Part shown: piece after piece, positions 989 to 13,733 of the stretch
Position numbering within the stretch: position 1 is the stretch's first letter
Layout of the letters: each line of letters opens with the position of its first letter
DNA from: Candidatus Eiseniibacteriota bacterium
Lineage (GTDB): Bacteria > Eisenbacteria > RBG-16-71-46
NCBI GenBank assembly: GCA_963717505.1
Contig: OY970342.1
Location: 2,464,001-2,528,000, forward strand
Length of the DNA stretch: 64,000 bases
Direction: 5' to 3'
Translations under genes and position numbers: made by a program
The notes under the pieces: generated by a model
Databases searched by the model: none
What the model was told of the DNA's origin: nothing
Seen by the model: only the letters and a program-made list of their open reading frames with translations

Positions 989-2278
989 TCAGGCGAGAAC
1001 CGCTTCGAGACTCCGCGGTACGCCCGCGGTCAGCACCTCGGGCTCGTCGCGCCGTACGCGGACGTTGTCCTCGATCCGGATGCCGCCGAACTCCTCGAGC
1101 TCGTCGACGCGCGACCAGACCACCGTGTCGCGATGCTCCGCGCGGCGCTCCGGATTGTTGAGCAACGCGGAAATGAAGTAGACGCCGGGCTCGACCGTGA
1201 TCACGTAGTCGAGTTCGAGCGGCAGATCGGTGCGCAGCATGCCCAGCCCGGGCCGCGTGCTGCGGATGCGTCCCGGGAGATAACCGCTGGCGTCGCGCAC
1301 GCCGAGCCCGACCAAATGCCCGAGCCCGTGCGGGTAGAACAGTGCGTGGGCGTCGCGCTCGACCAACTCTTCGGGGTGGCCGCGGAGGATTCCGAGGTCC
1401 ACGAGCCCGGCCGCGATCTCGTACGCTGATTTCATGTGGACGTCACGCCACTCGGCTCCGGGTACGCAGCGCGCGACCGCCCGTTCGTTGACGCCGAGCA
1501 CCAGCGCGTACAGCTCGCGGAAGAAGCCCGGATCGCCGCCGGCAGCGCGGTAGGTGCGCGTGACGTCGCTCGCGTAGCGCTGGACTTGCGCTCCGGCGTC
1601 GATCAGAACGCTGTCGCCTTCGCGGATCACGCGAGTACTCGGCGTGAAGTGGAGGACGGCCGAGTTGGATCCGGCGCCGACGATGGTGTGATACGCGGTA
1701 GCATCGCCGCCGTTTCGCTGGAACGTGGCCTCCAGTTCGATCTGGACGGCGCGCTCGGTGACCCCGGCCTGAATCATACGCTGGGCGGCTTCGAAACCGG
1801 CCGCGGTGGCGGCCGCCGCGCGGCGCATGCGTTCGAGCTCGACCGCATCCTTCGGTCGGCGCGCGTGCATGAGGATCTCGCGCAGCTCCAGGGCGCGCGC
1901 GGTGTCGCCCTGGATTCCCGGCAATGCGCAGCCGAGCGAAATGATCGGTTGCCCGCGGCGCGCTTCGAGCCAACCTGCCAGTTCGTCGAGCGGCGTACCC
2001 GGCGCCTCGGTGCGCCCTTCCCACACGCGTTCGGCCTCGGTCACCGGCGGAACGAAGTCGGTCCAGCCCGATTGGGGATCGAACGCGAGCACGCCGCCGG
2101 GAGTCTCGCGATCGGCGAGATAGAAGTACTCGGCATGACTCATGAACGGATAAACCTGGTCGGCGCCTCCGGGCACCGAGATCAGCTCGCCGGCGCCGAA
2201 CAGGACGACCTCGCGCTCGAGCTTCCAGGCGGCGGCGATGCGCTCACGGCGTCGTTTCAGGTAGTCGGTCATGCGCAT
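989..2278 (-). CDS. pepP: Xaa-Pro aminopeptidase/dipeptidase (M24B)
   Basis: N-terminal AMP_N-like region; metal-ligand motifs LIDAG, YASDVTRT, PHGLGHLVGL, TVEPGVY, GIRIEDNV. Confidence 0.9.
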   Translation of the reverse strand: MRMTDYLKRRRERIAAAWKLEREVVLFGAGELISVPGGADQVYPFMSHAEYFYLADRETPGGVLAFDPQSGWTDFVPPVTEAERVWEGRTEAPGTPLDELAGWLEARRGQPIISLGCALPGIQGDTARALELREILMHARRPKDAVELERMRRAAAATAAGFEAAQRMIQAGVTERAVQIELEATFQRNGGDATAYHTIVGAGSNSAVLHFTPSTRVIREGDSVLIDAGAQVQRYASDVTRTYRAAGGDPGFFRELYALVLGVNERAVARCVPGAEWRDVHMKSAYEIAAGLVDLGILRGHPEELVERDAHALFYPHGLGHLVGLGVRDASGYLPGRIRSTRPGLGMLRTDLPLELDYVITVEPGVYFISALLNNPERRAEHRDTVVWSRVDELEEFGGIRIEDNVRVRRDEPEVLTAGVPRSLEAVLA

Positions 2279-2281
2279 ACT

Positions 2282-3823
2282 CTAGCCGGTCGCGACGCGA
2301 TCGCGAAAACGCTGCAACCGGCCGCGATCGACCTTGCCCAGGTGCGTGCGTGGCAGGGCGTCGAGGAACACGACTTCGCGGGGGTGCTTGTAGGCGTCGA
2401 GCCGGGTGCGCACGAACTCGCGCAGCTCCTCGCCGAGCCCGTCGCGGCGCTCCTTGGCGACCACGAACGCCAGCGGCTTGACCAGCCCATTCGCATCCGC
2501 GACGCCGACCACCGCCGCCTCGCTCACCGCCGGGTGCTGGAGCAGGCAGCCCTCGACTTCGGCCGGGGCCAGCCACTTGCCGGCAACCTTGAGCAGCTCG
2601 TCGCCGCGGCCGCAGTAGGTGACGAAGCCGTCGGCGTCGCGGCGAATCAGGTCGCCCGAGACGTACCAGTCGCCGCGGAAGCCTTGCTGGGTCTTTTCCA
2701 TCTGCTGCCAGTAGGCGATCGCGCGCGCGCCGCCGCGCACCCACAGCCAGCCGGTCTCTCCGGGGGGCAGGTCGCGCCCGTCGTCGTCGCAGACTTTGAC
2801 CTCGAAGCCGGGAACGACCGTGCCGAGTGTCCCCGGACGCGCGGCACCCGGACGGTTCGAGATGAAGATGTGCCACATCTCGGCGGTGCCGAGGCCGTCG
2901 AGCAGATCGACGCCGAAGGTCTCGCGCCAGCGCTCGTGCAGCTCGACCGGCAGCGCTTCGCCCGCCGAGGTGCACACCCGCAGCGAGGACAAGTCCTGCG
3001 CCTTGGCGTCGGGGTGGGACACCATCTTGTGGATCATGGTCGGAACGTTGATCAGGATGGTCGGCCGGAACCGCCGGATACGCTCGAACACGACGTCGGC
3101 GGTGACCGGCTCGGGAAACAACGCCGAGGCGCCGCCGGCCGCAAACGGAAACAGCAGGTTCGAGCCGGTCGCGTACCCGAAGTAGAGCTTGGGGATCGAC
3201 ATCGTGACGTCGTCACGCGAGTAGCCGATCACCTGCCGGGCGTAGCAGTCATTCGTAAAGGCGAACGAGCGGTGCGTCTGGACGACGGCTTTCGGGCGGC
3301 CGGTGGTGCCGCCGGAGAAGAGCCAGATGGCGGCATCGTCCCGATGGGAGGGGAAGGTCTCGAAGTCGGGCGAGGACGCGGCGAGCTTGTCGTCGGTCTC
3401 GCGCTCGCCGATCACCAGGATCGCCTTCACGAAACGCGATCCGTCCGCCGCCTCGCGGAACGTAGCGGCCGTGTCGCGGTGAGCGACGACAACGCGCGCG
3501 CGCGAGTAGTCGAGCAGGTGACGGAGGTCGGAGGCCGGCAGCGCCGGATTCACCATCACGACCACCGCGCCGAGCTCGAGCGTGCCGAACAGCGCGCCGA
3601 CGAACTCGGGGCCGTCCGGCAGCGCGATCAGCACGCGCTGCTCGGGTTCCGCGCCGGATGCGGCGAGCAGGTTCGCGAAGCGGTGGGCCAATGCCTGGAC
3701 ATCGGCGTAGCTCAAAGTGCCGCCGTCGGTGCGCAGGGCGGCGCGCTCGCCGAGTCCTTCGCGCACTCGGGCATCGAGGAACCAGTCGGCGACGTTCAAC
3801 TGTTCCGGCGGATCGAAGCTCAT
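2282..3823 (-). CDS. Benzoate/2-aminobenzoate-CoA ligase family (AMP-binding)
   Basis: Start reassigned to MSFDPPEQLN (ATG at 3823). Motifs FSGGTTGRPK, PKLYFGYATG, SAGEALP, DGLGTAE, SGD..RRD, PRTHLGK. Adjacent to the anthraniloyl-CoA monooxygenase cluster. Confidence 0.85.
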   Translation of the reverse strand: MSFDPPEQLNVADWFLDARVREGLGERAALRTDGGTLSYADVQALAHRFANLLAASGAEPEQRVLIALPDGPEFVGALFGTLELGAVVVMVNPALPASDLRHLLDYSRARVVVAHRDTAATFREAADGSRFVKAILVIGERETDDKLAASSPDFETFPSHRDDAAIWLFSGGTTGRPKAVVQTHRSFAFTNDCYARQVIGYSRDDVTMSIPKLYFGYATGSNLLFPFAAGGASALFPEPVTADVVFERIRRFRPTILINVPTMIHKMVSHPDAKAQDLSSLRVCTSAGEALPVELHERWRETFGVDLLDGLGTAEMWHIFISNRPGAARPGTLGTVVPGFEVKVCDDDGRDLPPGETGWLWVRGGARAIAYWQQMEKTQQGFRGDWYVSGDLIRRDADGFVTYCGRGDELLKVAGKWLAPAEVEGCLLQHPAVSEAAVVGVADANGLVKPLAFVVAKERRDGLGEELREFVRTRLDAYKHPREVVFLDALPRTHLGKVDRGRLQRFRDRVATG

Positions 3824-3838
3824 GGTAGGTTGCGCATC

Positions 3839-5098
3839 ATGGACGCGCGATTCCGAGGTGGCAACTCCGGAAGGGCCAACGCGGTCGGTAGCGGAGTCGG
3901 CGCTTCGACGGGGGCTCCGGCGCGTTTCGGCCGGGACCTGCTGAAACTCTGGCCGCTGGACCCGAACATCATCTACCTGAATCACGGCACGGTCGGCGCG
4001 CCACCGCGTCGCGTGCTCGAGGCGCAGCAGCGGATCCGCGACGAAATGGTGCGGCAGCCCTCGCGATTCCTGTTGCGCGAGCTGACGCTGATCGGGGCCG
4101 GAGCCCACCGACCCGCCCTGCCGCGGATGCGGGCGGCGGCGGGTGAGGTCGCCGGTTTCGTCGGCGCACGCGCCGACGATCTGGTGTTCGTCGACAACGC
4201 GACCACCGGCGCCAACGCCGTGCTGCGCTCGTTCGACCTGCGGGCCGGCGACGAGATCCTGATGCTCGAAGGCTGCTACGGCGCAGTCCTCAATACGGCT
4301 CGCTACGTGTCACGGATGCGCCAGGCCGAGGTGCGCATCGTCGAGTTGCCGTACCCGCTGGATGGACCGGACGCGATCACGCGCGCGTTCACCAGCGCGC
4401 TCGGACCCAGGACACGCATTGCCGTGATCGACCACATCATGTCGGAGAGCGCGTTACTGCTGCCGGTCGCCGAGATCGCGGCGGCCTGTCGGGCCCGAGG
4501 TGTGCCGCTGTTGGTCGATGGCGCTCATGCACCCGGCGCGATTGCGTTGGACATTCCGTCTCTGGGCGTGGATTGGTACACGGGAAACTTGCACAAATGG
4601 GCGCAGTCACCACATACGTCGGCGATTCTGTGGGTGTCGCCCGAGCGTCAGAAAGACATGCATCCGGTGGTCATTTCGTGGGGACTCGATCAAGGTTTCA
4701 CGACGGAATTCGATCTGGTCGGCACCCGCGACCCCTCGGCGCATCTCGCCGCACCCGAAGGCATCGCGTTCATGCGCGAGCTGGGCGTGCGCGAGATGCA
4801 GGCTTACAACCATGCGCTGGCCTGGGAGTCGGGCAAGCTGCTGACGCGGCGGTTCGAAACCGAGATCGGAAAGCCGGAGAGTATGGTCGGCACCATGATC
4901 ACGATTCCGCTACCCGAGCGCGCTGGGCGCACGCGCGAGCAGGCTGCGACCCTGCGCGATGCCCTGCTGTTCGAGGATCGGATCGAGGTCCCGATCCACG
5001 CCTGGCGCGAGCGGTTGTGGGTGCGGGTGTCGGCGCAGGTCTACAACGACCTGCGCGACGTCGAGCGATTGGCGGAAGCGCTGGCGGCAAGGGTTTGA
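3839..5098 (+). CDS. PLP-dependent class V aminotransferase-fold enzyme (isopenicillin N epimerase/cysteine desulfhydrase/EgtE-like)
   Basis: Only the C-terminal part of ORF 1436..5098 is real: YLNHGTVG, NATTG, VDGAHAPG, GNLHKW (PLP Lys), GTRD, RVSAQVYN. Start uncertain. Confidence 0.8.
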   Translation: MDARFRGGNSGRANAVGSGVGASTGAPARFGRDLLKLWPLDPNIIYLNHGTVGAPPRRVLEAQQRIRDEMVRQPSRFLLRELTLIGAGAHRPALPRMRAAAGEVAGFVGARADDLVFVDNATTGANAVLRSFDLRAGDEILMLEGCYGAVLNTARYVSRMRQAEVRIVELPYPLDGPDAITRAFTSALGPRTRIAVIDHIMSESALLLPVAEIAAACRARGVPLLVDGAHAPGAIALDIPSLGVDWYTGNLHKWAQSPHTSAILWVSPERQKDMHPVVISWGLDQGFTTEFDLVGTRDPSAHLAAPEGIAFMRELGVREMQAYNHALAWESGKLLTRRFETEIGKPESMVGTMITIPLPERAGRTREQAATLRDALLFEDRIEVPIHAWRERLWVRVSAQVYNDLRDVERLAEALAARV

Positions 5099-5216
5099 GC
5101 GACGGGTGGTCCTGGGCTGATACCGAAGAAACAAGGACCAGGCCGTCCCCGGCGAATCCGCGTCGTTTGAAGTGGGATTTCGTCGCGGCGGCTCCGAGAC
5201 GCTAGTCTGGACCGCC

Positions 5217-5987
5217 ATGAGCGCTCCCCAACTCGCCGAACTCACTTGGGAAGAGGTGCGCGATCTCGACCACGCGCGGACCGTGGCGATTCTGCCGGTC
5301 GGCGCGATCGAGGCGCATGGCCCTCATCTGCCGATCGGCACCGACGTCGTGATCGCGAACGCCATGGCGCGCGCCGCGGCCGAAAAGCTTGCGGGCGAGG
5401 GTCGGAAAGCCGTGCTCCTGCCGGCGCTGCACTACACGGCAGCGCCTTTCGGGGCCGCATTCCCCGGAACGATTTCTGTGGCTCCTGCGACGGTCACCGC
5501 TCTGGCTCTGGACATCGCCCGAGAGCTGACGCGACACGGCTTCGCGATCCTGGCCATCGCGAATCCCCATCTCGATCCCACGCATCTCGGGGCGTTGAAC
5601 GACGCAGTCGCGCGCGCGCGCGAGGAGAAACTGCTTCCTGTCGCTTTCCCCGACCTGACCCGCAAGCCGTGGGCCGGACGGTTGACCGAGGAGTTCCAAA
5701 GTGGCGCCTGCCACGCCGGACGTTTCGAGGGCTCGATCGTGATGGCGGAACGTCCGGATCTGGTGCGCAAGGCGATCGCGAGCGGGTTGGCGCCGAATCC
5801 ATCATCGCTTTCGGACGCGATTCGCCGGGGGGATCGCACATTCGAGGCGGCCGGCGGACCGCGCGCATATTTCGGCGCGCCCGCCGAGGCGACGATCGAG
5901 GAAGGTCGAGCGTCGATCGCGATACTCGGCGCGATTCTGGCCGAGTCGGTGCTGATCACGATGTCCGGCGCCGAGGCGCGACCGTGA
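5217..5987 (+). CDS. Creatininase-family amidohydrolase (creatinine amidohydrolase / Fe(II) formamide hydrolase family)
   Basis: LTWEEV, PVGAIEAHGPHLPIGTD, CHAGRFEGS motifs. TGA overlaps the next GTG. Confidence 0.85.
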   Translation: MSAPQLAELTWEEVRDLDHARTVAILPVGAIEAHGPHLPIGTDVVIANAMARAAAEKLAGEGRKAVLLPALHYTAAPFGAAFPGTISVAPATVTALALDIARELTRHGFAILAIANPHLDPTHLGALNDAVARAREEKLLPVAFPDLTRKPWAGRLTEEFQSGACHAGRFEGSIVMAERPDLVRKAIASGLAPNPSSLSDAIRRGDRTFEAAGGPRAYFGAPAEATIEEGRASIAILGAILAESVLITMSGAEARP

Positions 5988-7171
5988 CCCTGCTGCTCGC
6001 CGGGCGCGCGGCGGTGGTCACCGGCGGCGGACGCGGAGTCGGCGCCGCGATTGCGGGAGCGTTGGCCGGCGCTGGGGCCCGCGTGGTGGTCGCGGCGCGC
6101 ACCGCGAGCGAGGTCGAGAGCGTAGCCTCGACGATGCGCGCCGAGGGCGCCCAGATCTGGGCGACGACCTGCGACGTCTCGGACGAGGCCAGCGTGCGGG
6201 TACTGGGAGAGACCGCGCGCAAACATGCCGGGAGCATCGACATTCTCGTGAACAATGCCGGGACCGCGGCGTCGGCGCCGCTCGCGCGCATCGGCCTCGA
6301 CGACTGGAACGCCATGTTCGCGGTCAACGCGACCGGCACGTTCCTGTGCAGCCGCGAGTTCGTGCCCGACATGGTCGCGCGCGGCCGCGGCCGGGTGGTC
6401 AACATCGCTTCGATCGCCGGCCTCGAAGGCGGCCGCTACATCGCGCACTACAGCGCCGCCAAGCATGCGGTGGTCGGCTTCACGCGCTCGCTGGCGCACG
6501 AAGTCGCCGGCACCGGCGTCACCGTCAACGCGGTCTGTCCCGGCTACGTCGACACCTCGATCACGACGCGCTCGATCGACCACGTGGTCGCCCGGACTGG
6601 CCGGTCGCGCGACGAGGCGCTGGCCGCCATACTGGCGACCACCGGCCAGTCGCGGTTGATCGCGCCGGGCGAGGTGGCCGAGGCGGTGCTCGCGTTGTGC
6701 GGCGACCGGGCGTCGGAGATCAACGGCAGAACGCAGGTGCTCGAGGGGGTCGTGGGCGAAAGCGGATTCGAGATCGTGAACCCGGCGGAACTGGGCGAAC
6801 CCAAAGGCTGGAGCAATGGCATGCTGGCGCCGGCGCGCGGCCGCTTGCTGCTGATCGCCGGGCAAACCGGCTTGCCGGCGCAAGGCGCCGCCGCAGCGCC
6901 GCCGTTCGTCGAACAATTCGCGCGCGCGCTCGATCGCGTACTGGCGGTGGTGCGCGAGGCCGGCGGCCGTCCGGTCGACATCGGGCGCATGACCGTGTAC
7001 GTCACCGACCTGGCCGCCTACGTCGACAGTCGCAAGGCGCTGGCCGTGGTATGGCGCGAGCGATTCGGGAAGCACTACCCGGCGATGGCGCTGCTCGAGG
7101 TCCGCGGACTGGTCGACGCCGGAGCCCAGGTCGAAATCGAGGCGACGGCGGTGATCGGGGGGAGCGGCTAG
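5984..7171 (+). CDS. Fusion of short-chain dehydrogenase/reductase (3-hydroxyacyl-CoA DH-like) and RidA/YjgF domain
   Basis: TGGGRGVG, NNAG, YSAAK, NAVCPG, followed in frame by VNPAELGEPKGWSNG...AGQ...FGKHYPAMALLEV..LV...VEIEATA (RidA). Confidence 0.85.
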   Translation: MTLLLAGRAAVVTGGGRGVGAAIAGALAGAGARVVVAARTASEVESVASTMRAEGAQIWATTCDVSDEASVRVLGETARKHAGSIDILVNNAGTAASAPLARIGLDDWNAMFAVNATGTFLCSREFVPDMVARGRGRVVNIASIAGLEGGRYIAHYSAAKHAVVGFTRSLAHEVAGTGVTVNAVCPGYVDTSITTRSIDHVVARTGRSRDEALAAILATTGQSRLIAPGEVAEAVLALCGDRASEINGRTQVLEGVVGESGFEIVNPAELGEPKGWSNGMLAPARGRLLLIAGQTGLPAQGAAAAPPFVEQFARALDRVLAVVREAGGRPVDIGRMTVYVTDLAAYVDSRKALAVVWRERFGKHYPAMALLEVRGLVDAGAQVEIEATAVIGGSG

Positions 7172-7974
7172 TGCCGATCGCACCGAAGTCGTTCCTCTAT
7201 TCAGTCGACTCGGCGAGTGGCGTTGCGACCATCACTCTTAACCGCCCCGAGCGCCTGAACGCCCTGACGTTCGAGGTCTACGGCGAGTTGCGCGACACGT
7301 TCCGCGCACTCGACACCGAGCCCGGCGTTCGCGCGATCGTCATCACCGGCGCGGGTCGCGGCTTCTGCTCGGGCGGCGATGTCGAGGACATCATCGGCGC
7401 ACTGTTCGGACGAGACTCCGCAGGGCTCCTCGCATTCACCCAAATGACCTGCGACCTGGTGCTCGCGATCCGGCATTGCTCGCGGCCGGTAATTGCGGCG
7501 CTCAACGGCACGGTGGCCGGCGCCGGTGCGGTGATCGCCACCGCCTGCGACTTCCGGATTGCCGCCGAGTCGGCGAAGATCGCGTTCCTGTTCGTGCGCG
7601 TCGGACTCTCGGGCGCCGACATGGGAGCCTCGTGGCTGCTGCCGCGCATCGTGGGGCTGGGACATGCGACCGAGCTGTTGATGACCGGGGAATTCATCGA
7701 CGCGAAACGTGCGGCCGAGATCGGGCTCTACCATCGCGTGGTGGCTCAGGACCGGGTGGTGGCCGACGCCACGGAATTCGCGGCCCGCCTGGCGCGCGGT
7801 CCGCTCGCGGCACTCGCGGTGACCAAGCAGGCATTGGAACTCGAGGCCGACATGACCCTCGCCGACGCGCTGGCCCACGAGGCTCGTGTCCAGGCCGAGC
7901 TGATGGAGCATCCCGACTACCGCGAGGCCTACGAGGCGTTTCGCGCCAAGCGCGAGCCGAGGTTCGCGCGGTGA
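7171..7974 (+). CDS. Enoyl-CoA hydratase/isomerase
   Basis: [44 protein letters not shown] start overlaps the upstream TAG. Confidence 0.9.
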
Positions 7975-9128
7975 TGCGTATTCCCGACGCCGCGCCGATT
8001 CGCGCGCTGCTCGACCCGGCGCACGTTGCGTTCGCCGGCAAGGTCGGCGCCTTCGCGGCACGCGAAATTTCGAGCCTGCCGGCGCCCGAGAGCGACGACG
8101 CAGCCCGGCGCACCGCGCGCGAGCTGGTCTCGCGGCTCGGCGGCGCCGGGTGGTTCGAGCCGATCCGCCGGCAGGACTGGCGTGCCTGCTGCCTGACGCG
8201 CGAGGCGCTGGCCGCCGCACTGCCGCTCGCCGACGCCGTGTTCGCGCTTCAGGGGTTGGGTTCCCTGCCGATCTTCGCCGCGGGCAGCAACGAATTGCGG
8301 ACAGGCTGGGCCGACGCGGCGATCGAAGGCCGCGCCATGGCCGCCTTCGCAATGACCGAGCGCGACGCGGGCTCCGACGTCGCCGCGATGGCGACCACCG
8401 CGCGGCGCGACGGCGATCACTACGTGCTCGATGGCACCAAGACCTACATCTCGAATGCCGGCATCGCCGACTTCTACACCGTGTTCGCCAAGACCGATCC
8501 CGCCGCCGGCAGCCGCGGCGTCTCTTGCTTCGTGGTGCCGGCCGACACGCCGGGATTGCGTTTCGTCCGGCCGCTGGTGCTCTCGGCGCCGCATCCGCTG
8601 GGCGAGATCGCTTTCGAAGGTTGCCGGGTGCCGGCGGCGAATCGATTGGGCGAGGAGGGCAAAGGATTCGGACTCGGACTCAAGGTGCTCGATCGCATGC
8701 GCGCCACCGTGGGTGCGGCCGCGTGCGGCATGGCCGCGCGCGGATTGTCCGAAGCGCTCGACTACGCTCGCGCTCGAAGGCAATTCGGCAAGCCGATCGC
8801 CGAGTTCCAACTGGTGCAGGAGAAGCTGTCGCGCATGGCGACCGAGCTGACCGCGGCGCGCCTCATGGTCTATCGGGCGGCGTGGGCGGCCGACGGCGGC
8901 GCCGAGCGAGTGACCCTCGAGGCAGCGATGGCCAAGAGCTTCGCGACCGAGGCGGCGCAGCGCATCGTCGACGACGCGGTCCAGGTGCTGGGTGGGGTGG
9001 GACTCATGGCGTCGCACCCGGTCGACCACCTCTATCGCGCGGTGCGCGCGCTCCGCATCTACGAAGGCACGACCGAGATCCAGCACCTGGTGATCGCCGG
9101 GCAACTCTTGAAGGAGGCCGAGGCGTGA
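7974..9128 (+). CDS. Acyl-CoA dehydrogenase
   Basis: [47 protein letters not shown]. Confidence 0.92.
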
Positions 9129-11428
9129 AGGCCGTCGCCATCGGCGGCGGGCCGGCCGGCCTGTTCTTCGCATTGCTTTTGAAGAAGGCCAACCCGAAGC
9201 ACGACGTGTCGGTCTATGAGCGGAACCGGCTCGATGACACCTTCGGCTTCGGCGTCGTGTTCTCGGATGCGACCGAGGAGGCACTCGCCCAGGCCGATCC
9301 CGAGACCATCGCCGCGATGGCGGCGGCCTGCCACCGCTGGGACGACATCGAAATCCACTATCGGGGTGAGATGCTGACCTCGACCGGCCACGGTTTCTCG
9401 GGTCTATCGCGGCGAACCTTGCTCGAGATCCTGGCCGGCCGATGCCGGGCCGCAGGTGTCCACCTGTGCTTCGAGCGCGAGATCAAAGACCCCGAGTCGC
9501 TGCGCGACGCCGATCTGGTGTTCGCTGCAGACGGCGTCAACTCGATGGTGCGCGAGCGCTATCGCGAACACTTCCAGCCGGTGATCGACACCCGACCCAA
9601 CAAGTTCGTGTGGCTGGGCACCACCCGGCCGTTCCCGGCGTTCACCTTCTATTTCAAGCCCACCGAACACGGCCTGTGGCGGGTGCACGCCTACCAGTAC
9701 GAGCCGGGCGCCTCGACCTTCATCGTCGAGGCGCGCGACGAGACCTGGCGCGCCGCGGGGCTCGAACGCGCGAGCGAAGCCGACACGATCGCGTTCTGCG
9801 AGCGGCTGTTCGCCGAGGAACTCGACGGTCACCGGTTGGTCTCGAATCGCTCGGTGTGGCGCAGCTTCCCGACCATCCGCAATCAGCACTGGCATCACGG
9901 CAACCTCGTGCTCGCCGGCGACGCCGCGCACACAGCGCACTTTTCGGTGGGTTCGGGGACCAAGCTGGCGATGGAGGACGCGATCGCACTGGTCGCCGCC
10001 CTCGGCGCGCACCGCGACATCCCGGAGGCGCTTGCCGCCTACGAGGCGGTTCGCCGCCCGGGGGTCGAAAGTCTCCAGCGCGCGGCGCAGGCCAGTCTTC
10101 AGTGGTTCGAGGACACCGAGCGCTACATGGATCTCGAGCCGATCCAGTTCGCGTTCACGCTGCTCACGCGCAGCCTGCGGGTCACGCACCAGAATCTGAA
10201 GGTGCGCGATCCCAAGTTCGTCGCCCAGGTCGATGAGTGGTTCGCCGATCGGGCCGACCGACAGGTGGCAGGTAAGAGCGGTTCTTCCGGCGTGAAAGGA
10301 GAGGCCGTTGGCAAGATCTCGGCGGGCACACCGCCCGGGCGCGTGCCGCCCCCGATGTTCACGCCGTTTCGCTTGCGCGACCTGCTGCTCGAGAACCGCG
10401 TCGTGGTCTCGCCGATGTGCCAATACTCGGCCGAGGACGGCATGCCCGACGACTGGCACCTCGTGCATTTGGGTGCGCGCGCGGTGGGCGGCGCCGGGCT
10501 GGTCTACGCCGAGATGACCGACGTCAGCCGTGACGGCCGCATCTCGCCGGGCTGCACCGGCCTCTACAAGCCCGAGCACGTGCCGGCGTGGAAGCGCATC
10601 GTCGACTTCGTGCACGGGAACACCCGCGCCAAGATGGGGATCCAGCTCGGGCACGCCGGCCGCAAAGGGTCGACTCGTTTGTCGTGGGAGGGCGACGTCG
10701 AGCCGCTGATCGCCGAGAACTGGCCGATCGTCTCGGCCTCGGCCATTCCGTGGCGGCCCCACAGCCAGGTGCCGAAGGAGATGACCCGCGCCGACATGGA
10801 TGGGGTGATCGCCGACCACGTGCGCGCCGCGGGCTACGCACTCGAAGCCGGCTTCGACCTGCTCGAAATCCACATGGCGCACGGCTATTTGCTGGCGAGC
10901 TTCATCTCGCCGCTCACCAACCGTCGCACCGACGAGTACGGGGGTACGATCGAGAACCGCATGCGTTTCCCGCTCATGGTGTTCGATGCGGTGCGCGCCG
11001 CGTGGCCCCAGCACCAGCCGATGTCGGTGCGCATCTCGGCGGTCGACTGGTTCCCGGGTGGCCACGACCCGGCCGATGCGGTCGATGTCGCGCGCCTGCT
11101 CGCCGAACACGGCTGCGACATCGTCGACGTCTCGGCCGGGCAAACCGTGCCCGATCAGCAACCGATCTACGGACGGATCTTCCAGACCCCATTCGCCGAT
11201 CGCATTCGCCACGAAGCCGGGATCGCGACCATGGCGGTCGGCAACATCTCGTCGTACGCGGACGTCAACACCATCCTCGCGGCGGGCCGGGCCGATCTGT
11301 GCCTGCTCGCGCGCGCTCATTTGTGGGATCCCTACTGGACCCGACACGCCGCCTACGAACTCGGCTGGCCACTGGCCTGGCCCGATCCCTACGAGTCCCT
11401 GAACACGTTTCGGCCGCGGTTCACCTAG
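9125..11428 (+). CDS. abmA: Bifunctional anthraniloyl(2-aminobenzoyl)-CoA / salicylyl-CoA monooxygenase-reductase
   Basis: FAD monooxygenase N-half ([40 protein letters not shown]) fused to an old-yellow-enzyme C-half ([32 protein letters not shown]). Confidence 0.92.
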
Positions 11429-11475: not shown

Positions 11476-12252
11476 ATGACCGTCACCTACGGCAGTTACC
11501 TCAGACTCGACGAGCTGCTCGCGCAGCAGCAGCCGCTCTCGGACGAACACGACGAGATGCTGTTCATCGTCATCCACCAGGTCTACGAGCTGTGGTTCAA
11601 GGAACTGCTGCACGAAATCGATTATCTGAAGAAGATGCTGGAGGCCGGCGACGAGCCGCGCGCGCTGCACACGTTCAAGCGCATCCTGACCATCCTCAAG
11701 GTCGTGGTCGCCCAGATCGACGTGCTCGAAACCATGACCCCGCTCGAGTTCCTGTCGTTCCGCAACCGACTCGAAAGCGGGAGCGGATTCCAGTCGTTCC
11801 AGTTCCGCGAGCTGGAGTTCGTGCTCGGCGCGAAAGACCCGGCGGCGCTCGAGCGCTACCCGAATGGCAGCGCTGCGCGCGGACGACTCGAACGGCGTGT
11901 GGCGGAGCCGACGCTGTGGGACTCGTTCCTGCGCTACCTGGTGTTGCGCGGGCATCCGGTGCCGCGCATGCAGCTCCAGCGCGACGTGCGCCAGCCGGTG
12001 GCGGCCGCGCCCGAGTTGGAGCCGCTGCTGCTGGACCTCTATCGTAGGGACTCGATGGTCCGCACGCTGTGCGAACGACTGGTCGACCTCGACGAAGGCA
12101 TCCAGGAATGGCGCTACCGGCACGTCAAAATGGTGCAGCGCACGATCGGCACGCGGCGCGGCACGGGAGGGTCGGCGGGCGCGGACTACTTGATGCAAAC
12201 GATCAATCGACCGATGTTTCCCGACCTATGGAGCATTCGGACGCAATTCTAG
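11476..12252 (+). CDS. kynA: Tryptophan 2,3-dioxygenase
   Basis: TYGSYLRLDELL, HDEMLFIVIHQVYELWFK, SGFQSFQFR, WRYRHVKMVQRTIG..RGTGGSAG. RBS AGGAGA. Confidence 0.95.
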   Translation: MTVTYGSYLRLDELLAQQQPLSDEHDEMLFIVIHQVYELWFKELLHEIDYLKKMLEAGDEPRALHTFKRILTILKVVVAQIDVLETMTPLEFLSFRNRLESGSGFQSFQFRELEFVLGAKDPAALERYPNGSAARGRLERRVAEPTLWDSFLRYLVLRGHPVPRMQLQRDVRQPVAAAPELEPLLLDLYRRDSMVRTLCERLVDLDEGIQEWRYRHVKMVQRTIGTRRGTGGSAGADYLMQTINRPMFPDLWSIRTQF

Positions 12253-12279: not shown

Positions 12280-12501
12280 ATGAACAAGTCCCTGCGGTTG
12301 CTGCCCACTCTCTTGCTCTTTGCCACGTCCGCGCACGCGCATGATGGCCATGGTGTTGTGGAGCGGTCGGGGTCGTGGCTCCACTACGTGCTCGAACCGG
12401 TGCACCTGCCAGTGACACTGCTCGCGGTCGGGATCTTGCTGGTCGGCGGTCGCTGGACGTTCCGGCGCCTCGAACGATCGATGTCCTCCCGCCGCCGTTG
12501 A
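12280..12501 (+). CDS. Small secreted/membrane protein with His-rich N-terminus (HupE/UreJ N-terminus-like)
   Basis: Strong RBS (AGGAGG), signal peptide ending AHA, then HDGHG..SWLHYVLEPVH and one TM helix. Stop overlaps the kynU TTG. Confidence 0.65.
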   Translation: MNKSLRLLPTLLLFATSAHAHDGHGVVERSGSWLHYVLEPVHLPVTLLAVGILLVGGRWTFRRLERSMSSRRR

Positions 12502-13733
12502 CGCACCCGTCGCCGGCCGCTGGGGCCGTGCATTCCATCGAGTCATTGGCGCGCGACACCAACTCGCTCGCCCCTCTCTACTCTCGGTTCCGCGTCGCCG
12601 ATCGGCTGCTGCTGACCGGCCACTCTCATCAGGCGTGGCCGGACGTGGCGTTCGAGGGCCAGAATCAAGCATGGCTCGATGCCGCTGAATTCGTGGACGA
12701 AAAGTGGTTGCGCGCCGAGCAACAGGCCGACGCGGTTCGCGCGGGGTTCGCGCGGCTGCTCGACGATCGCGACGGCCTGATCGCGCTCGGCACCAGCACC
12801 CACGAGCTGGTGATCCGCTTCCTGTCGGCGCTGCCGCTCGAGCAACGGCCGCGGCTGGTGACCACCGACGGCGAGTTCCACACGCTGCGCCGTCAGCTCG
12901 ATCGTTTCGCCGAGACCGGGCGCATCGAGGTAGTCAAGGTTCCGGCGCTGCCGGCAGCGACCGCTGCCGATCGCCTGGCCGCCGCCGTCAACGATCGCAC
13001 GGCCGCGGTGCTGGCTTCTTCGGTCCTGTTCGCCAATTCGCACATGGTGCCCGGCCTCGGCCGCGTACTCGAGGCCTGCCGCAAGGTCGGAGCGGAGCTC
13101 TTGGTCGACGTCTATCACCAGCTCAATGTCGTCCCGGTGTCGGTGGAGCGAGAACACCTCGGCGGCGCGTTCGTGGTCGGCGGCGGCTACAAGTACTGCC
13201 AGCTCGGCGAGGGCAATTGCTTCCTGCGCGTCCCGCCCGGGCGCGACGAGCTGGCGCCGGTGATCACCGGATGGTTCAGCGAGTTCGGACGCCTCGCCCA
13301 ACGCCCGGAAGGCGCCGTGCCTTACGGGGAAGGTGCCGCACGCTGGGCGGGGGCGACTTACGACCCGACCAGCCACTATCGCGCCGCGCGAGTCTTCAAC
13401 TTCTTCGAGGCGCAGTCGCTATCGCCCGAGTTCCTGCGTGCGGTCAGCCAGAGCCAGATCGGCGTCCTGGCGTCGGCGTTCGATTCGCTCGACCTCGATC
13501 CCAGGATCGTCACGCGCGATCGCGACACGCCGCTCGCGGCAATTGGTGGATTCCTGGCGCTCATCAGTCCGCACGCAGAGGAGCTCTCACTCTTGTTGCG
13601 CGCGCGGGGTGTGGCCACCGACGTACGCGGCCCGCTGCTCAGGCTCGGTCCAGCGCCGTACCTGTCGGACTCACAACTGCGCGACGCGATCGCGGTGCTC
13701 GGCACGGTCGTGCGGCAGGACTTGGCGCGCTAG
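12498..13733 (+). CDS. kynU: Kynureninase
   Basis: LLTGHSHQAWP, DGEFHT, VDVYH, GGYKYCQLGEG (PLP Lys), TGWF, LRLGPAPY; next to kynA. Start is TTG 12498 or GTG 12528. Confidence 0.85.
   Translation: MTHPSPAAGAVHSIESLARDTNSLAPLYSRFRVADRLLLTGHSHQAWPDVAFEGQNQAWLDAAEFVDEKWLRAEQQADAVRAGFARLLDDRDGLIALGTSTHELVIRFLSALPLEQRPRLVTTDGEFHTLRRQLDRFAETGRIEVVKVPALPAATAADRLAAAVNDRTAAVLASSVLFANSHMVPGLGRVLEACRKVGAELLVDVYHQLNVVPVSVEREHLGGAFVVGGGYKYCQLGEGNCFLRVPPGRDELAPVITGWFSEFGRLAQRPEGAVPYGEGAARWAGATYDPTSHYRAARVFNFFEAQSLSPEFLRAVSQSQIGVLASAFDSLDLDPRIVTRDRDTPLAAIGGFLALISPHAEELSLLLRARGVATDVRGPLLRLGPAPYLSDSQLRDAIAVLGTVVRQDLAR

Follow-up and report, generated by a model that had tools for sequence, protein, structure and literature searches.

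The kynurenine formamidase of eukaryotes, AFMID/Bna7, is an alpha/beta hydrolase with a serine hydrolase fold and no metal, and it carries out the reaction that we propose here for a bacterial protein of the creatininase family. KynB (PF04199, TIGR03035) would fill the same step, and PMC4243253 presents it as a binuclear-metal amidohydrolase. The protein in question is encoded at positions 5217–5987 of a 64,000-nucleotide stretch of DNA (the window; contig OY970342.1, assembly GCA_963717505.1) from a Candidatus Eiseniibacteriota bacterium, and we suggest that it is probably an arylformamidase (EC 3.5.1.9 activity) acting on N-formylkynurenine or N-formylanthranilate and standing in for KynB, which is absent from this genome. 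KynB and the candidate are unrelated in fold and family, and any resemblance between them would be functional only. An initial annotation of the locus had stated that the creatininase family includes Fe(II)-dependent formamide hydrolases of the ArfB type; that ArfB, the archaeal formamidase of riboflavin synthesis, belongs to the family and depends on Fe(II) is something we assume, and the claim of formamide hydrolysis stands on account of BrbF. BrbF (SMc02977) of Sinorhizobium meliloti, annotated as a creatininase, is described in PMC9478397 as the formamidase of riboflavin synthesis, releasing formate from an N-formyl-aminopyrimidine, and as having no sequence similarity to ArfB. BrbF and the candidate differ in pathway and in neighbour genes, and they are likened here through annotation and chemistry, not through sequence.

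The fold, the formamidase chemistry and the pathway step are thus known, and what would be new, as proposed from comparative genomics, is a creatininase-fold protein in the place of KynB. A search for literature linking creatininase with 2-aminobenzoyl-CoA (CoA, coenzyme A), kynurenine formamidase, kynureninase or anthranilate returned nothing relevant, as judged by title and abstract. The gene and the blocks of its product that are discussed below are as follows.

5217–5987, forward strand: creatininase-family binuclear-metal amidohydrolase, candidate arylformamidase; 256 amino acids (aa), Pfam PF02633
5310–5345, forward strand: first metal-ligand block, E32-A-H34-G-P-H-L-P-I-G-T-D43, aligning to EQHGHH...D of solved creatininase
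5562–5585, forward strand: subfamily loop N116-P-H118-L-D120-P-T-H123 (NPHLDPTH, residues 116–123), which replaces NGHYEN / NGHGGN
5712–5729, forward strand: block H166-A-G-R-F-E171, aligning to H178...E183 of creatininase

The G+C content of the window is ~69%, and its genes were selected first on third-position G+C, then on profile matches. The open reading frame (ORF) enclosing the candidate gene spans 5172–5987, and the ATG at 5217 is preferred as the likely start because relatives align from residue 1. The protein matches Pfam PF02633 (Creatininase) with an E-value of 8.3e-54 (183 bits against a cut-off of 31.3) over profile positions 1–236 of 238; this is its sole Pfam match, and it does not belong to the KynB cyclase family (TIGR03035/PF04199, HxGTHxDxPxH motif). 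Its scores lie below the equivalog cut-offs of the mycofactocin peptidase MftE (TIGR03964, 100.3 bits vs 172) and of creatinine amidohydrolase (TIGR04448, 85.2 bits vs 235), and below the cut-off of the 3-dehydro-scyllo-inosose hydrolase IolN (NF041098, 34.9 bits vs 245, over the N-terminal 110 residues only). A fold search with the AlphaFold model of the protein (pLDDT 81.8, pTM 0.84) gave 26 matches in the Protein Data Bank (PDB) at E≤0.001, all of them creatininase-family proteins (TM 0.62–0.70). At these matches the solved creatininases are 22–27% identical to the candidate, the nearest by sequence having an E-value of ~1e-17, and a search of the ESM Atlas returned "creatininase family" clusters only.

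E32, H34, D43, H118, D120, H166 and E171 align to the metal and catalytic residues of creatininase, which is consistent with a binuclear metal site; D120 is an Asp at a position where creatininase carries Glu. The numbers H178 and E183, and the list of metal-site residues, are those that we take to hold for the Pseudomonas putida enzyme. None of the seven varies among 31 homologues, and in 75 orthologues each is conserved at 95% or more. The creatinine amidohydrolase of P. putida (1j2t, 1q3k, 3a6j) shares the fold (TM 0.62–0.67) and the aligned E, H, D, H, acidic residue, H and E, but it is only 23–27% identical to the candidate, which has NPHLDP for NGHYEN, scores 85 bits against a cut-off of 235 and lacks any creatine-related context. 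The unusual loop had been noticed in the initial annotation and is confirmed by the alignment with NGHYEN of the solved creatininase: H118, D120, P121 and H123 are invariant among the homologues aligned, the consensus of the 75 orthologues is ANaHlDP.H, and P117 of the window protein is a minority residue, with A in most orthologues. Beyond the window the same genome encodes another creatininase-family protein, a 233-aa paralogue (C1:2588369-2588839; L003 1489-2190), which has the NGHGGN loop and is only ~31% identical to the candidate over 114 residues.

The genome consists of one contig of 4.16 Mb, and canonical KynB was found nowhere in it, extending to the whole genome what the initial annotation had reported for the window. 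The sole PF04199 match is a 332-aa protein with SGTQWDALAH in place of HxGTHxD and no NCBIfam match, and a tblastn search of the 4.16 Mb with two canonical KynB proteins from other genomes gave nothing at E≤1e-5. Around the candidate gene we find the following genes.

2282–4108, reverse strand: aryl-CoA ligase (probable anthranilate-CoA ligase), divergent; TIGR02262 benzoate-CoA ligase family, 473.6 bits vs cut-off 375
4013–5098 (start uncertain, 4013–4127), forward strand: class-V aminotransferase-fold pyridoxal phosphate (PLP) enzyme; Pfam Aminotran_5, 2.4e-24
5984–7171, forward strand: SDR fused to a RidA (L-PSP) domain; adh_short 2.2e-60 and Ribonuc_L-PSP 1.1e-14
7171–7974, forward strand: enoyl-CoA hydratase (ECH) family protein; ECH_1 3.6e-56, NF006107 365.8 bits vs cut-off 330
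7971–9128, forward strand: acyl-CoA dehydrogenase (ACAD); Acyl-CoA_dh_1, _M and _2 domains
9125–11428, forward strand: fusion of a flavin adenine dinucleotide (FAD) monooxygenase and an old yellow enzyme (OYE) reductase, of the 2-aminobenzoyl-CoA monooxygenase/reductase (ACMR) type; NF006101, 1149.9 bits vs cut-off 1078
11476–12252, forward strand: tryptophan 2,3-dioxygenase (kynA); PF03301 1.7e-60, TIGR03036 282.7 bits, under the cut-off of 390.7
12375–13733 (probable start ~12528–12546), forward strand: divergent kynureninase-like PLP enzyme (kynU); Pfam KYNU_C 6.5e-5 only, under the cut-off

Both NF006101 and TIGR02262 are matched above their cut-offs, which identifies a 2-aminobenzoyl-CoA (abm-type) cluster with ACMR and an aryl-CoA ligase, and the gene content as a whole reads as a predicted route from tryptophan through anthranilate to the degradation of anthraniloyl-CoA. 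Set against the abm clusters of Azoarcus evansii, the window cluster would add kynA, kynU-like and creatininase genes. The ligase, the ACMR-type flavoenzyme and the beta-oxidation-like genes are shared with the abm clusters of A. evansii and Arthrobacter sp. Rue61a, the two genera from which PMC3534580 and PMC4539516 describe an aerobic CoA branch of 2-aminobenzoate degradation. The true start of the window ligase is probably downstream of the first start in its ORF.

The stop codon of the candidate gene overlaps the GTG start of the SDR-RidA gene (GTGA at 5984–5987), so the translational coupling proposed earlier holds. The accompanying claim that the gene heads its operon fails in the window, where the class-V PLP gene lies between the ligase and the candidate, 118 bp upstream of the latter. 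This PLP gene, whose product is related to C-S lyases and cysteine desulfurases of the PDB, occurs in 0/80 related loci and is an insertion peculiar to this genome; in those 80 loci, all without it, the creatininase gene is the first of its operon. As for the upper pathway, kynA was called correctly, and kynU is present in a form far more divergent than the initial annotation implied, with no NCBIfam match and no meaningful PDB sequence match at E≤10.

The divergent kynU carries a GGGYKYCQLGEG motif, and its substrate may be other than plain kynurenine. Its orthologues occur in 76/206 genomes of the phylum, including four without kynA, where they stand in unrelated contexts. Elsewhere in the source genome there is a canonical-type kynureninase homologue (C1:2780644-2781642) that shares 38% identity with canonical kynU from G086. 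The region C1:1751587-1756885 has a second FAD-monooxygenase, which matches the N-terminal half of ACMR at 45% identity, with a ligase paralogue ~3 kb away.

Species genomes scanned for homologues of the candidate yielded 80 loci, labelled as Candidatus Eisenbacteria, Gemmatimonadota, Dormibacterota, Acidobacteriota, Planctomycetota and some proteobacteria, and neighbours were counted gene by gene in loci with enough flank. The aryl-CoA ligase is divergent and adjacent to the homologue in 67/69 loci, and SDR-RidA (64/68), ECH (56/58), ACAD (48/51), ACMR (38/42), kynA (33/39) and, after kynA, a kynU-like gene (33/39) are nearly as regular. Of the 138 holder genomes tested for kynA, 131 carry it. 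In three loci (L034, L052 and L071) the homologue is still accompanied by the ligase, and the flanks contain no lower-pathway genes: L071 groups ligase, creatininase and kynU-like genes together, and in L052, labelled Planctomycetota, the homologue stands beside the ligase and a kynU-like gene, the genes downstream are unrelated and ACMR is on another contig. L059 and L068 at first looked like aminobenzoyl-CoA clusters keeping the gene without kyn genes, and were rejected as such when kynA-kynU turned out to lie 3–7 kb past the fetched ends. Creatine, mycofactocin and riboflavin genes were not seen in the annotated flanks of the candidate.

In the source phylum (206 genomes; KynB-like genes called at E≤1e-25) an orthologue occurs in 66 genomes, all 66 of which have kynA. 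A KynB-like gene is present in 3/66 of these holders vs 8/18 kynA-positive non-holders (Fisher p 1e-4, a value not corrected for the relatedness of the genomes), and in family f18, where 39/41 genomes hold the gene, KynB occurs in 0/41. Full-length ACMR tracks the candidate gene almost exactly in this phylum, and the phylum alone therefore cannot separate the CoA module from the tryptophan module.

A second class, the one holding G027, was surveyed across 339 genomes with thresholds of E≤1e-45 for homologues and E≤1e-30 for KynB. A ligase-linked homologue is held by 140/339 genomes (six at 57–60% identity, the remainder at 38–50%) and KynB by 136/339, and the two replace one another: not one of the 339 genomes has both, vs 56 expected by chance. 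The anti-correlation with KynB that the initial annotation had proposed as a check is thus seen in both surveys. As a control for the threshold, 80 of the 136 KynB genomes were searched with the window protein at E≤1e-8, and 72/80 were without any match. Creatininase-family matches of 30–39% identity in the KynB genomes G292–G297 were considered as cases of co-occurrence and rejected: these six, the best of the eight remaining, are paralogues with neither ligase nor kyn genes next to them. ACMR in 73/80 of the KynB genomes was likewise dismissed as a sign of a CoA route without the candidate, because in 8/8 loci viewed it stands alone, without ligase, ECH or ACAD.

Eighteen second-class loci, taken for long contigs and best scores and not at random, were fetched. 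The homologue adjoins a ligase homologue in 18/18; a canonical-type kynU lies within 8 kb of it in 11/18, and ECH and/or ACAD genes are near it in 9/18. KynB is in none of the 18 loci, and no KynB match exceeds 71 bits in any of the 18 genomes. KynB itself adjoins canonical kynU in 13/22 KynB loci viewed, unlike the candidate, which adjoins the aryl-CoA ligase. In the KynB genomes of this class (L155–L162) the order is kynU, KynB, RidA-like in 8/8 loci viewed, and RidA thus accompanies both formamidase types.

Two further features of the second-class loci are given as side observations. A small protein of 231–289 aa with a weak protein-kinase domain lies between canonical kynU and the ligase in 6/6 loci (L137, L138, L142, L147, L148 and L150); its gene had been considered as kynA and was rejected as such. 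A methylenetetrahydrofolate reductase gene stands directly 3' of the creatininase homologue in 3/3 (L142 7063-7929, L147 9259-10125, L150 9122-10000), which might be a link to released formate or merely synteny shared by relatives.

We favour an arylformamidase because kynA and a kynureninase-like gene are present where canonical KynB is absent, and because the metal and catalytic residues of creatininase are conserved and BrbF is a formamidase. The earlier suggestion that the enzyme deformylates N-formylkynurenine or N-formylanthranilate gains circumstantial support from the genome-wide absence of KynB and from the anti-correlation. In the scheme we propose, KynA would open tryptophan to N-formylkynurenine; in the candidate enzyme, water activated by the presumed metal site (a metal-bound hydroxide) would attack the formyl carbon, and the aryl-formamide bond would be hydrolysed with release of formate. 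The putative substrate would be N-formylkynurenine, before the kynureninase-like step, or N-formylanthranilate, after it; by analogy, both would be aryl-formamides of the same kind as the BrbF substrate. Free anthranilate would then be activated by the adjacent CoA ligase, and the CoA ester degraded by the monooxygenase/reductase and the beta-oxidation-like enzymes encoded downstream. The gene is placed with the upper pathway because L052 and L071 keep it by ligase and kynU-like genes, and because kynU lies within 8 kb in the 11/18 second-class loci.

Both orders of reaction figure in standard pathway maps. A bolder version, which we regard as tentative and on the whole doubtful, is that the ligase-linked clade represents a third, independently evolved and widespread formamidase of the kynurenine pathway, perhaps working in a re-ordered pathway. 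Here a kynureninase-type enzyme would come first, cleaving N-formylkynurenine to alanine and N-formylanthranilate, and the candidate would deformylate the latter directly before the ligase acts. Such an order would explain the pairing with the ligase, the kynA-kynU pairs that lack a formamidase and the stand-alone anthranilate clusters that lack the gene.

A number of observations weigh against the arylformamidase proposal. The most constant neighbour is the ligase (67/69 loci, and 18/18 in the second class), rather than kynA or kynU; in second-class genomes kynA lies mostly elsewhere, away from the ligase-creatininase pair, and kynA (PF03301) is found in 55/62 holders and in none of the other 7/62, which may be incomplete genomes. 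Alpha/beta hydrolases, which could compete for the step, adjoin kynU in 2/18 second-class loci; ~240-aa proteins upstream of kynU were considered as further rivals of this kind and rejected, as they match no Pfam family and do not resemble either of these two hydrolases. Exclusion of KynB is incomplete outside the second class: three holders in the source phylum, among them G103, a genome flagged as unpublished, also have a KynB-like gene, and full-length KynB-like matches (139–182 bits) occur in 8/30 holder genomes of a sample labelled mainly as Gemmatimonadota, with the canonical KynB motif in all five readable sequences of these eight. One of these co-occurring genes adjoins canonical kynU as a separate module.

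KynB is also an imperfect marker, since 35 genomes of the source phylum without kynA carry a KynB-like gene. Four good-quality genomes of one genus (G112, G123, G124 and G125) have kynA and the divergent kynU without the creatininase gene, KynB or ACMR, and the bare kynA-kynU pairs viewed there (L104 9757-11735 in G124, L105 4140-6118 in G112) are flanked by methyltransferase, HTH, NnrS and MFS genes, with no hydrolase beside them. This genus, which has neither formamidase, suggests that a dedicated formamidase is not obligatory. The divergent kynU occurs without the candidate gene in 11 genomes, four of these without kynA. Finally, when second-class genomes are ordered by handle, holders and KynB genomes fall into blocks, which we take as taxonomy, so that relatedness inflates the statistics; independent events are few, and the only holders with KynB genomes on either side are G413, G511, G516 and G546.

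The first competing account, which we think unlikely, is a hydrolase of the lower 2-aminobenzoyl-CoA pathway acting on the non-aromatic ACMR product, for example through hydrolytic loss of the enamine nitrogen or ring-opening of a cyclic diketone CoA ester. It would account for the translational coupling to SDR-RidA and for the position of the gene directly upstream of SDR-RidA, ECH, ACAD and ACMR in most loci. The family also includes a C-C ring hydrolase, IolN, to which the candidate has its weak match of 34.9 bits, and the later steps of the 2-aminobenzoyl-CoA pathway are left unresolved in PMC3534580 and PMC4539516. This account has to contend, however, with complete clusters from which the gene is missing. 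Two of them, on a Phyllobacterium plasmid and a Ralstonia megaplasmid, have ACMR, SDR, ECH, ACAD, ligase and RidA at 34–55% identity, and neither has a creatininase, kynA or kynU gene; a third, in G086 of the same phylum, has ACMR, SDR, ECH, ACAD and ligase with no RidA-domain match at the locus, and again none of the three genes, and there canonical kynU stands next to KynB on another contig. ACMR matched 532 plasmid records, 240 of them at ≥80% coverage, vs no match to the candidate protein among 72,556 plasmid records at E≤1e-20.

Because full clusters without the gene exist, we conclude that the CoA route can do without it if free anthranilate or canonical KynB is available. Nor would a lower-pathway enzyme explain why L052, L034 and L071 keep the gene by the ligase in the absence of lower-pathway genes, or why KynB is excluded. 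The alternative offered in the initial annotation, hydrolysis of an amide or lactam formed during ring cleavage, is weakened on the same grounds, as complete aminobenzoyl-CoA clusters without kyn genes lack the gene.

We give little credence, too, to a partner of the aryl-CoA ligase with another job, such as freeing anthranilate from N-acetylanthranilate or isatin-type lactams, or clearing a by-product of the ligase. The reaction of creatininase itself is the opening of a five-membered lactam, which would suit this account, as would the ligase-creatininase pair being the most conserved unit across phyla and the 7/62 second-class holders without a kynA match, both of which tell against a formamidase. 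Besides, identity between the ligases of clusters with and without the candidate is only 34%, vs 41–55% for the other enzymes, and the pair may thus have been co-recruited. On the other side stand kynA in the 131/138 holders and a kynU-type gene in or near most clusters, and genes for oxygenases of indole or quinaldine routes were not seen in the annotated loci; nor would strict exclusion of KynB be predicted. It is highly improbable that the gene is an ordinary creatinine amidohydrolase, MftE or BrbF/ArfB, since its best NCBIfam matches, to MftE and creatininase, fall far under their cut-offs, the nearest solved structures, although creatininases, are only 22–27% identical, the loop motif differs, creatine, mycofactocin and riboflavin genes are missing from the annotated flanks and the neighbourhood is conserved around another pathway.

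Some variation within the cluster concerns genes other than the candidate. SDR and RidA are separate genes in proteobacterial clusters, and only RidA follows the creatininase gene in two Acidobacteriota-labelled loci; a RidA domain would fit hydrolysis of an enamine or imine product of ACMR. One further gene lies beside the ligase in the window.

989–2278, reverse strand: M24 metallopeptidase-family protein; Peptidase_M24 6.6e-50, present in 0/80 related loci

M24 homologues of 34–36% identity stand directly upstream of ACMR in two distant genomes (L122 2637-3443, L123 3697-4476), and in L163, L167 and L170 further ones are found no more than a few kb from ACMR. The M24-family protein may be a further hydrolase of the pathway.

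Many bacteria with kynA and kynU lack a recognisable formamidase, and as a result their tryptophan catabolism is mis-annotated as incomplete, while the candidate gene is everywhere labelled as "creatinine amidohydrolase". If the arylformamidase proposal is true, this formamidase hole would be closed in a large fraction of bacteria from soil and sea, and the cyclase fold of KynB and the alpha/beta hydrolase of eukaryotes would be joined by a third non-homologous solution for the step. The creatininase fold would cover a wider range of formamide hydrolases, and the gene would serve as a marker for a little-studied degradation of tryptophan through anthraniloyl-CoA.

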